DNA of 25,976 nt from a virus: UHGV virus genome UHGV-1612078. The stretch is one strand, 5' to 3'. Below the pieces are notes generated by a model, which saw only the letters and a list, made by a program, of their open reading frames with translations, searched no databases and was not told the origin of the DNA. A program made the translations under genes and the position numbers. Shown here piece by piece: positions 23,560 to 25,544 of this stretch. Position 1 is the stretch's first letter, and each line of letters begins with the position of its first letter.

Positions 23560-23823
23560 ATGTTTAAAGTATATGGTTATGATAGCAACATCCACAAATG
23601 CGTGTATTGCGATAATGCAAAACGTCTCTTGACTGTGAAGAAACAGCCGTTTGAATTTATCAACATTATGCCGGAAAAAGGTGTTTTTGATGATGAGAAA
23701 ATTGCTGAGCTTCTGACTAAACTAGGTCGTGATACTCAAATCGGCTTAACAATGCCTCAGGTATTTGCTCCTGATGGAAGTCATATTGGTGGATTTGACC
23801 AACTGCGAGAATATTTTAAATGA
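23560..23823 (+). CDS. nrdC: glutaredoxin/thioredoxin NrdC
   Basis: 87 aa, MFKVYGYDSNIHKCVYCDNAKRLL... with CVYC redox motif. Matches my recollection of T4 NrdC. Confidence 0.9.
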   Translation: MFKVYGYDSNIHKCVYCDNAKRLLTVKKQPFEFINIMPEKGVFDDEKIAELLTKLGRDTQIGLTMPQVFAPDGSHIGGFDQLREYFK

Positions 23824-24053
23824 TGCTCGAAGGAACTGACTATATTCATGATTACCGCGGAAGCGCGGTATATGTAGGTGATGAAGTTGCAGTTTATTAT
23901 GGGTATGGAACTTTGATGACAGCCAAGGTTATTCAAATTAAAAATAATCGTGCTAAACTCGAAGTTTATTATTCTAATGGTGAAAAGTCTATTTCTAAGT
24001 GGAAATACGGCGATTGTATGGTTAAATTGGGTAAATATGATTTACGATATTAA
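23820..24053 (+). CDS. hypothetical protein (77 aa)
   Basis: ATGA-coupled to nrdC. Confidence 0.5.
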   Translation: MMLEGTDYIHDYRGSAVYVGDEVAVYYGYGTLMTAKVIQIKNNRAKLEVYYSNGEKSISKWKYGDCMVKLGKYDLRY

Positions 24054-24207
24054 TGTATCACGAGCTCCGTCAATGGTTACTATTCCAGCCGAAGAACTAG
24101 ATCGTCTTCAGAAAATTGAAGAGCTTCTTTGGGAAATTGAATCTGATTTGCCATCAGGATTAGAATCCTGGATTGATTATGAAGAACTTAATAAGCTTCG
24201 GGGTTAA
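24037..24207 (+). CDS. hypothetical small acidic protein (56 aa)
   Basis: ATG 24037 overlapping the upstream gene. Competes with the overlapping ORF 24179..24346. Confidence 0.4.
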   Translation: MIYDINVSRAPSMVTIPAEELDRLQKIEELLWEIESDLPSGLESWIDYEELNKLRG

Positions 24208-24346
24208 ACCTTGGTGGGCGGCTAGATGGGAAACTGTAGAGCCAGAGCCGGAAGAACCGGTTTACACTGATGAAGAAACAGTATATAATGAACCAACGAT
24301 AAATGACTTAATTGATATGGAGATGGGACATGATTACAGTAGATAA
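24179..24346 (+). CDS. possible small ORF (55 aa, Pro/Glu-rich)
   Basis: Manual translation MKNLISFGVKPWWAARWETVEPEPEEPVYTDEE.... Overlaps both neighbours. Low confidence. Confidence 0.2.
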   Translation: MKNLISFGVKPWWAARWETVEPEPEEPVYTDEETVYNEPTINDLIDMEMGHDYSR

Positions 24347-24815
24347 GTGGTTTAGAATTAATCGTGCTGATACAGGGCTGTGTAATTACTGGCCGGAACT
24401 TAGTGCAGGTACTGTCTTTAAAGTTCGTGAACTTGCAAAAGAATGTGAAGATGATATAGAGCCTGACACTGGAATTATTGAAATTGAACTTTCTGATGGA
24501 AAAATTATTAACATCTATGATAAGCCAATTACGTATTGGTGTTTGTGGAATACTGAATCCGTTGAAAATGGTGAAATCGAGGAAGTTGTAGAGAGAACTA
24601 GCCAAGATGTTCAGAAGCCTAAAGCCGCTTTTCAAGGTGAACGTATTTCATATGCATTAGCTAAAGTGGCATTGAAAAAAGATATTGATGATTATGAAGG
24701 TAACCTGATGCAAGCTGCGGCAGAATATATTGAATGGCTTGAAACTCAAAATTCTTTTTCTGACCAAATGATTCGGCAATATAAGCGATTGCATCAAATG
24801 TTTTATAATACTTGA
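24330..24815 (+). CDS. hypothetical protein (161 aa) in the pin/49.x position of T4
   Basis: SD ggag then ATG 24330. Lies between nrdC and gene 49 as pin does in T4. Identity to Pin not verified. Confidence 0.5.
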   Translation: MITVDKWFRINRADTGLCNYWPELSAGTVFKVRELAKECEDDIEPDTGIIEIELSDGKIINIYDKPITYWCLWNTESVENGEIEEVVERTSQDVQKPKAAFQGERISYALAKVALKKDIDDYEGNLMQAAAEYIEWLETQNSFSDQMIRQYKRLHQMFYNT

Positions 24816-25031
24816 AAAAACTCAAAATTCTTTTTCTGACAAGGCATTTTAATGAAAACCGAATTGGTTTATACTGAAAAGTTAAATGGCGGTAAGGTTT
24901 GGAAACTTTTTATTAAAGGACATTCTACGGACCCTCATATGACCACTTGCGTAGGAACCTATTCTCGTCCTACTAAAAAGATGATTCGACAGTATAAACG
25001 ATTGCATCGAATGTTTTACAATACTTGAAAA
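24744..25031 (+). repeat. local duplication: 21-bp repeat (24744-24764 and 24820-24840) and about 51-bp repeat (24768-24818 and 24981-25031, about 90% identical)
   Basis: Direct repeats read from the sequence. The second copy is interrupted by about 140 bp that supply a new N-terminus to a 58-aa ORF. Confidence 0.7.
24852..25028 (+). CDS. small ORF (58 aa) sharing its C-terminal 15 aa (MIRQYKRLH(Q/R)MFYNT) with the upstream 161-aa protein
   Basis: Created by the duplication. Terminator immediately downstream. Confidence 0.35.
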   Translation: MKTELVYTEKLNGGKVWKLFIKGHSTDPHMTTCVGTYSRPTKKMIRQYKRLHRMFYNT

Positions 25032-25039
25032 TAATAAAT

Positions 25040-25070
25040 ACCCTTATCTATTTAAGGTAAGGGTTTTATT
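25040..25070 (+). terminator. rho-independent terminator
   Basis: accctta-(loop)-taagggt hairpin followed by TTTATT. Confidence 0.5.
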
Positions 25071-25544
25071 ATGTTATTGACTGGCAAATTATATAAAGAA
25101 GAAAAACAGAAATTTTATGATGCACAAAATGGTAAATGCTTAATTTGCCAACGAGAACTAAATCCTGACGTTCAAGCTAATCACCTCGACCATGACCATG
25201 AATTAAATGGACCAAAAGCAGGAAAGGTACGTGGATTGCTTTGTAATCTCTGCAATGCCGCAGAAGGTCAAATGAAGCATAAATTTAATCGTTCTGGCTT
25301 AAAGGGACAAGGTGTTGATTATCTTGAATGGTTAGAAAATTTACTTACTTATTTAAAATCCGATTACACCCAAAATAATATTCACCCTAACTTCGTTGGA
25401 GATAAATCAAAGGAATTTTCTCGTTTAGGAAAAGAGGAAATGATGGCCGAGATGCTTCAAAGAGGATTTGAATATAATGAATCTGACACTAAAACACAAT
25501 TAATAGCTTCATTTAAGAAGCAGCTTAGAAAGAGTTTAAAATGA
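25071..25544 (+). CDS. 49: endonuclease VII (Holliday junction resolvase, gene 49)
   Basis: 157 aa, MLLTGKLYKEEKQKFYDAQNGKCLICQRELNPD...HLDHDHELNG... Zn-binding CxxC pairs and H-N-H-like core. Matches my recollection of T4 gp49. Confidence 0.9.
   Translation: MLLTGKLYKEEKQKFYDAQNGKCLICQRELNPDVQANHLDHDHELNGPKAGKVRGLLCNLCNAAEGQMKHKFNRSGLKGQGVDYLEWLENLLTYLKSDYTQNNIHPNFVGDKSKEFSRLGKEEMMAEMLQRGFEYNESDTKTQLIASFKKQLRKSLK

Follow-up and report, generated by a model that had tools for sequence, protein, structure and literature searches.

A tandem repeat between pin and gene 49 of T4-like phages is probably the scar of unequal recombination between two alleles

In phage T4, tandem duplications and deletions arise by recombination at short homologies, and the classical rII duplications segregate by homologous recombination. 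T4-type hyperplastic regions are also remodelled by PeSL-mediated modular shuffling (Arbiol et al. 2010, PMC2839356; Comeau et al. 2014, PMC4122927). PinA of T4, the inhibitor characterised in biochemical work, binds and inhibits Escherichia coli Lon (Hilliard et al. 1998, as relayed in PMC8835725, which cites UniProt P07068). Here, we analyse a 25,976-bp virus sequence (UHGV-1612078; the window, with all features discussed below on its plus strand) in which the 3′ ends of pin and of a small gene recur just upstream of gene 49. We find that these repeats most probably record an unequal exchange, by short-homology or illegitimate recombination, between two pin–gene 49 alleles of T4-like phages. 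As in the T4 rII duplications, the repeat is partial and head to tail, with one novel A-run junction beside a shared CTTGAAA, and the repeats can recombine out, alleles of the expected shorter lengths being found in nature. In contrast to those duplications, however, the units here appear to come from two alleles, one of which already had an internal 138-bp deletion, and, unlike the unstable laboratory rII segregants, this arrangement has become fixed and is widely distributed, occurring in at least 104 genomes. The locus resembles PeSL-mediated shuffling in that a small gene is present or absent between conserved T4-type genes through short-repeat recombination; the repeats, however, are coding fragments (terminal parts of pin and the small gene) rather than intergenic promoter plus stem-loop cassettes, and a promoter and terminator scan found no site inside 24742–24840 or 24981–25031. 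Nor does the locus look like a homing-endonuclease insertion, as the 213 bp of extra DNA encodes the DUF7279 protein only and matched no nuclease families.

The window holds a Tequatrovirus segment with the gene order nrdC, pin, small open reading frame (ORF), gene 49 (endonuclease VII) and nrdD, and its best relative across an 801-nt query is the Tequatrovirus Escherichia phage APTC-EC-2A (99.8% identity). The equivalent in T4 is the early region in which tRNA genes, e, regB, tk, rI and nrdC lead into pin, gene 49 and nrdD. Gene 49 (25071–25544) encodes the 157-aa recombination endonuclease VII (Pfam PF02945 and PF09124; phrog_423).

The repeats have the layout A-B-A′-X-B′. Block A (AAACTCAAAATTCTTTTTCTGAC) lies at 24742–24764, where it encodes (E)TQNSFSD of pin, and again, identical at 23 of 23 positions, at 24818–24840. 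These are the only two sites in the window, even when three mismatches are allowed, and the chance expectation is 0 (100 dinucleotide-preserving shuffles of the window). An earlier reading of this DNA, made from the sequence only, had noticed the repeat and put its length at 21 bp; it is real, and 23 bp long. Block B (24768–24818) comprises the pin tail MIRQYKRLHQMFYNT, the stop codon TGA at 24813–24815 and three more A; its counterpart B′ (24981–25031) comprises the native tail of the small gene, MIRQYKRLHRMFYNT, with its stop, and is conserved across genera. The two agree at 46 of 51 positions (90%, five mismatches) and lie 213 bp apart from start to start, so that the sequence-only reading, which gave about 51 bp at about 90% identity, had both their extent and their positions right. 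A repeat search on the pair returned 65 nt at 83%, and the first 33 nt of block B had 0 chance matches in the shuffles. A run of six A at 24815–24820 (ACTTGAAAAAACTC) forms the novel junction between B and A′ and defines the allele that we denote S3; a head-to-tail repeat with this single novel junction, as expected of a partial tandem duplication by unequal recombination, was seen in all S3 genomes read.

Between the junction and the small gene lies a 35-nt non-coding segment (24818–24852) consisting of A′ and 12 further nucleotides. From 24820 it reads TQNSFSDKAF and then stops, with its TAA (24850–24852) overlapping the ATG of the small ORF, and it carries AAGG 7 nt ahead of that ATG. The segment aligns to the true pin 3′ ends of phages NBG2 and KAW1E185 and of an IMG/VR locus (L013) and, from this comparison, represents a defunct copy of the 3′ end of an S1-type pin (S1 being the allele described below). 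We considered frameshifting or readthrough of TGAAAAAAC at the junction and ruled it out: the downstream frame gives only the 11-codon pin relic.

The pin gene (24330–24815) encodes a 161-aa protein, the T4-type fused form of the host Lon protease inhibitor PinA, ending in QMIRQYKRLHQMFYNT. The protein matches Pfam PF10465 (Inhibitor_I24; MEROPS inhibitor family I24) with E=2e-46 and 157.7 bits (cut-off 27) over aa 4–140 (profile positions 2–134 of 136), and phrog_2167 with E=1.4e-62 over aa 1–146; its last 15 aa lie outside both profiles. A PDB sequence search with Pin gave zero matches. Like T4 PinA, to which it aligns over its full length, it has the same tail at the same fusion junction; unlike in T4, where the small gene downstream of pin has been lost, that gene is kept here. 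Its close orthology to T4 PinA suggests that the window's Pin would likewise inhibit Lon.

The small gene (24852–25028) encodes 58 aa ending in KMIRQYKRLHRMFYNT and belongs to the family DUF7279/phrog_3272. It matches Pfam PF23945 with E=3e-17 and 62.7 bits (cut-off 24.5) over aa 7–56 (profile 1–53 of 53), and phrog_3272 with E=3.4e-34 over positions 1–58 of 59, tail included; positions 43–58 of phrog_3272 also match Pin aa 146–161. A comparison of the endings of the two ORFs bore out the earlier observation that they share a tail. A tblastn search with the small ORF matched 358 phage records, and query coverage was 80% or more in 353. At least four Tevenvirinae genera have the ORF directly ahead of gene 49, with the same position in Gaprivervirus VR7 (ORF082c), Dhakavirus JS98 (orf76) and Mosigvirus JK36 (gp91). 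It also precedes gene 49 in NBG2, in O157 typing phage 3 (frameshifted) and in five IMG/VR loci (L009–L013); IMG/VR scans with both proteins gave 6 and 5 loci, useful as outgroups and not for counts. As with JS98 orf76 and VR7 ORF082c, the window has a full-length DUF7279 member just upstream of gene 49; in this allele, overlap with and coupling to the pin stop have been lost, and the 35-nt pin relic precedes it. In all intact copies of the small gene the tail is MIRQ[YF]KR[LF]HR.FY or, in the longer form of the motif, MIRQ[YF]KR[LF]HR.FYN. AlphaFold2, run with a 10-sequence alignment, predicted three strands and a C-terminal helix at residues 42–56, which is the tail, although confidence was high for just one of the five models (pLDDT 81.6, against about 53 for the rest). 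An NCBIfam search gave zero matches for either Pin or the 58-aa protein, and a literature search found no paper that mentions DUF7279.

These comparisons assign the tail to the small gene: DUF7279 and phrog_3272 cover it, the Pin profiles stop short of it, and outgroup Pin proteins go without it. Tailless Pin occurs in Mosigvirus, where the protein ends EYLERRLS, in VR7 and in many Tequatroviruses, and the Pin fragments of VR7 and of the IMG/VR locus L013 end RFSDEVF and RFSDKAF, respectively; in L013 this end overlaps the small ORF through TAATG. On this evidence the tail originated in the small gene, and pin acquired it secondarily, as its last 15–16 aa. A possibly new point is that T4 PinA ends in 15 residues captured from a neighbouring gene, one that T4 itself no longer has. 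That these residues fall outside the Pin family domain is relevant to mapping the PinA–Lon interface and to construct design.

The shared tail also accounts for recurring mis-annotation. In the GenBank record of APTC-EC-2A the 58-aa ORF (UEP18349.1) is labelled 'host protease inhibitor', an unjustified label that was probably transferred through the 15 residues in common with Pin. In the same record many nearby genes are bulk-labelled 'thioredoxin'.

Pairwise Nei–Gojobori counts gave pN/pS values for the small gene of 0.26 across genera and 0.20 within Tequatrovirus, indicating purifying selection, and its tail is its most constrained part (0.13–0.18). The tail on pin gave about 0.92, based on five distinct 48-nt sequences with 4 synonymous and 18 non-synonymous pairwise differences. 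There, the tail might be a tolerated passenger rather than a functional addition.

Four alleles of the pin–gene 49 interval were distinguished, and an alignment (A1) covers S1 (NBG2), S2 (T4), S3 (the window and APTC-EC-2A) and S4 (KAW1E185). In S1 (NBG2, SfPhi01, EP01, HY01, JEP6 and LF73P3), a 148-aa pin ends SFSDRAF and overlaps the small gene through TAATG, spanning 725 bp of the 801-nt query. S2 (T4, RB18, RB9 and others) equals S1 minus 138 bp in frame, which joins pin codon 145 to the last 15 codons of the small gene; pin has 161 aa, the small gene is absent and the span is 587 bp. In S3 (the window, APTC-EC-2A, WL-3, OMNI12, UPWr_E4, SG1, BCPEco001 and L008), the fused 161-aa pin is followed by AACTCAAAATTCTTTTTCTGACAAGGCATTTTAATG and an intact small gene, and the span is 801 bp. 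In S4 (KAW1E185 and others), pin has 148 aa, a deletion between TTTTAAT and TTTTACAAT has taken out the small gene, the tail sequence is entirely absent and the span is 555 bp.

Of the 640 matching records, 40 were sampled at even spacing, and among these S3:S1:S2:S4 stood at 7:5:15:4; the frequencies of alleles other than S3 are estimates from this 40-row sample. For S3 itself, a 72-nt probe across the junction matched over its full length in at least 104 GenBank phage records; a second junction probe was SNP-sensitive under megablast and unreliable for counting S2 and S3. The junction ACTTGAAAAAACTCAAAATTC is identical in 8 of 8 distinct S3 genomes read, which argues that S3 arose once. The window thus carries a widespread allele of a four-state polymorphism, which is ordinary phage mosaicism of a sort long known from T4-type variable regions, and the locus offers a clean natural example, in four alleles, of deletion, fusion and unequal crossover remodelling a T4-type early region. 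In UPWr_E4 (PP418987.1) the pin–gene 49 query matched two places, which may reflect terminal redundancy of the assembly or a second partial copy. When L001, L019–L021, L008 and L028 were compared with the window (25026–25028), the stop codon of the small gene was TGA in the window and in SG1, and TAA in most other S3 genomes.

We favour the following origin. The ancestral arrangement would be S1, with a 148-aa pin ending SFSD[RK]AF, its TAA overlapping the ATG of the 58-aa gene, and that gene ending in the helical tail MIRQYKRLHRMFYNT just ahead of the hairpin of gene 49. A 138-bp in-frame deletion, running from the third-last pin codon through the stop to codon 43 of the small gene, would then have left pin fused to the small gene's last 15 codons, that is, the 161-aa PinA of T4 (S2). 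S3 would have formed when an S2-type left half, with its tailed pin, was joined to an S1-type right half starting inside pin codon 137/138. The join would lie in an A-run where both partners read CTTGAAA (GGCTTGAAACTC in pin; ATACTTGAAAAT past the stop of the small gene), pointing to a short-homology event; a clean CTTGAAA microhomology join would give three A, however, and the junction has six, so the microhomology actually used may have been only 1–3 nt.

Two kinds of comparison bear on this origin. First, S2 and S3 share the fusion junction of A and B, GACC[GA]A[AT][AT]GATTC, at which T4 keeps the S1 codon CGA (GACCGA|ATG) and all S3 genomes have CAA. The order S1, then S2, then S3 appears the most parsimonious, resting on parsimony and one diagnostic codon; flanking polymorphisms have been scrambled among the alleles by homologous recombination and yield no clean tree. 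Second, every pin tail is 1–2 nt (of 43) from the small-gene tails of S1 phages (NBG2 and LF73P3) and 3–5 nt from that of its own genome; in the window, the 43-nt core of block B differs by 2 nt from the NBG2/LF73P3 small-ORF tail and by 5 nt from its own B′. Because the pin tails are nearer to other phages' small-gene tails, the two copies in the window would derive from two different alleles and not from a recent duplication in situ.

Once formed, the direct repeats would remain substrates for deletion and for conversion between B and B′, and recombination at A/A′ or B/B′ would regenerate S1-like or S2-like alleles of the observed lengths. The earlier suggestion that the repeats permit further rearrangement accordingly holds up: natural alleles are shorter by 76 bp (the A/A′ spacing) or by about 213 bp (the B/B′ spacing), and in BCPEco001 the small-gene tail has a 3′ segment of the pin type (AAT CAA, encoding N-Q), found otherwise only in pin tails among the loci sampled, which indicates an ectopic B/B′ exchange.

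Could the duplication instead have come first? The 213-bp A-X-B unit of S1 would then have been duplicated head to tail in situ, the first copy would have lost X by the 138-bp deletion to give S3, and S2 and some S1 alleles would be later deletions from S3 through B/B′ or A/A′. The lengths fit, since 801−76 gives the 725 bp of S1 and 801−213 gives 588 bp against the 587 bp observed for S2, and A and A′ are 23/23 identical in the window; S2 and S3, moreover, share not only the A|B junction but also tail polymorphisms such as AAT CAA (SG1 and L015–L018). This scenario, however, takes three events where two suffice, and its A-X-B-A-X-B intermediate was absent among about 25 Tevenvirinae loci read. 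The S1 codon CGA kept at the T4 junction, found in no S3 genome, and the greater closeness of B to other phages' tails than to its neighbour B′ also speak against it, and we regard it as unlikely.

The tail could alternatively be a portable functional peptide, an amphipathic helix through which both proteins bind the same partner (Lon, say, or a factor associated with it) and which is selected on both, with the small protein acting in Pin's host-protease pathway. Such a role would suit a small gene that is translationally coupled to pin in S1 (TAATG) and adjoins Pin-family genes in several genera, a tail that is under tighter constraint than the rest of the small protein and forms its predicted helix, and a biochemically studied inhibitor, T4 PinA, that has the tail. 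Against it, the tail on pin has a pN/pS of about 0.9, many phages have a tailless Pin (S1, S4 and Mosigvirus) and S4 lacks the tail sequence altogether. A Foldseek search against the PDB with the 58-aa model, itself unstable across predictions, gave nothing better than E=0.27, and we consider the peptide reading very doubtful. A stronger version, in which the DUF7279 protein and Pin constitute a two-part module against Lon (or other host proteostasis) with the shared C-terminal helix as the partner-binding element, is a long shot; if it were true, T4 PinA would be a natural fusion merging both activities, and S3 phages would carry fused and separate versions together.

The sequence-only reading had proposed the opposite direction: that the 3′ end of the 161-aa gene was copied downstream and that about 140 bp inserted in the second copy supplied a new N-terminus, creating a novel, possibly untranslated 58-aa ORF. 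The A-B-A′-X-B′ layout, taken alone, permits this, and the 140-bp gap between A′ and B′ (24841–24980) is real, as is the recombination scar. The DNA in the gap is no insert furnishing an N-terminus, however, because the whole ORF, N-terminus included, stands at the same position in genera whose pin has no tail; in VR7, JS98, JK36 and others the small ORF and its tail are already upstream of gene 49, and the alignments leave no room for these ORFs being unrelated to the window's. Together with the end-to-end match to curated families (DUF7279/phrog_3272) and the purifying selection (pN/pS 0.2–0.26), this makes creation of the ORF by duplication scarcely credible. The 58-aa gene is, by these comparisons, old and conserved, and it is pin that holds a copied piece of its end. 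An assembly or sequencing artefact can be dismissed, as the same junction recurs in 104 phage records with different names, hosts and accession series.

The repeated unit sits in what is probably a single transcription unit. A strong sigma-70-like early promoter predicted at 24261–24289 (TTTACA-17-TATAAT, matching 11 of 12 consensus positions; NBG2 has a promoter annotated at the homologous site) lies upstream of pin, and the only terminator-like structure is a hairpin with a T-run at 25040–25064, just upstream of gene 49 and overlapping its Shine–Dalgarno sequence; a single transcript from this promoter therefore probably covers pin and the small gene. The hairpin is an annotated terminator in NBG2 and KAW1E185 and is invariant in all alleles; the T-run after it varies by one base between phages. 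RNA folding of 24800–25080 gave z = −1.76, with the gene 49 hairpin alone stable. An Rfam search of 24200–25200 gave only a match to ohsC over this hairpin, which at 25.5 bits (gathering score 50; E=0.22) fell short of the threshold and was rejected as chance. At 25033–25040, AATAAATA agrees at 7 of 8 positions with the T4 late-promoter consensus (TATAAATA). In S3 the small gene is uncoupled from the pin stop, and in both S3 sub-alleles a four-base Shine–Dalgarno core (AAGG or AGGA) stands 7 nt ahead of the ATG, at the site of GAG in S1. We infer that in S3 the small gene would be translated from its own Shine–Dalgarno sequence instead of by coupling to pin; this core may reflect selection.

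Related loci show further changes of the same genes. In Dhakavirus JS98 (L029, 529–1004) the Pin domain is split and permuted, a 57-aa ORF corresponding to Inhibitor_I24 positions 88–136 and the next ORF, of 100 aa, to positions 3–74, and the DUF7279 gene and then gene 49 lie downstream of these split ORFs. VR7 (L005, 1060–1505) has only a 57-aa C-terminal Pin fragment plus an unrelated 90-aa ORF. Pin in JS98 and VR7 looks like the residue of a tandem pin duplication, which suggests that unequal crossover recurs at this locus. The DUF7279 gene is frameshifted into ORFs of 29 and 30 aa in O157 typing phage 3 (L007, 1390–1568) and wholly lost in Mosigvirus mar005P1, where the pin stop is followed directly by the gene 49 promoter and hairpin; judged from such genomes, the gene is dispensable and has been lost repeatedly.

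Within the window, a 37-nt stretch of pin (24723–24759, encoding AAEYIEWLETQ) is 70% identical to one in gene 49 (25317–25353, encoding VDYLEWLENLL; repeat D2). The likeness between EYIEWLE of Pin and DYLEWLE of endonuclease VII was not significant in BLASTP (E=0.05, a single comparison) and is probably due to chance. The interval separating nrdC from pin (23820–24346 in the window) also differs among phages. The ORFs in it here are 77, 85 and 57 aa long, and the 57-aa one is 49.1-like and runs into the start of pin; those of T4 measure 102 and 106 aa, and still other sets are present in NBG2 and KAW1E185.
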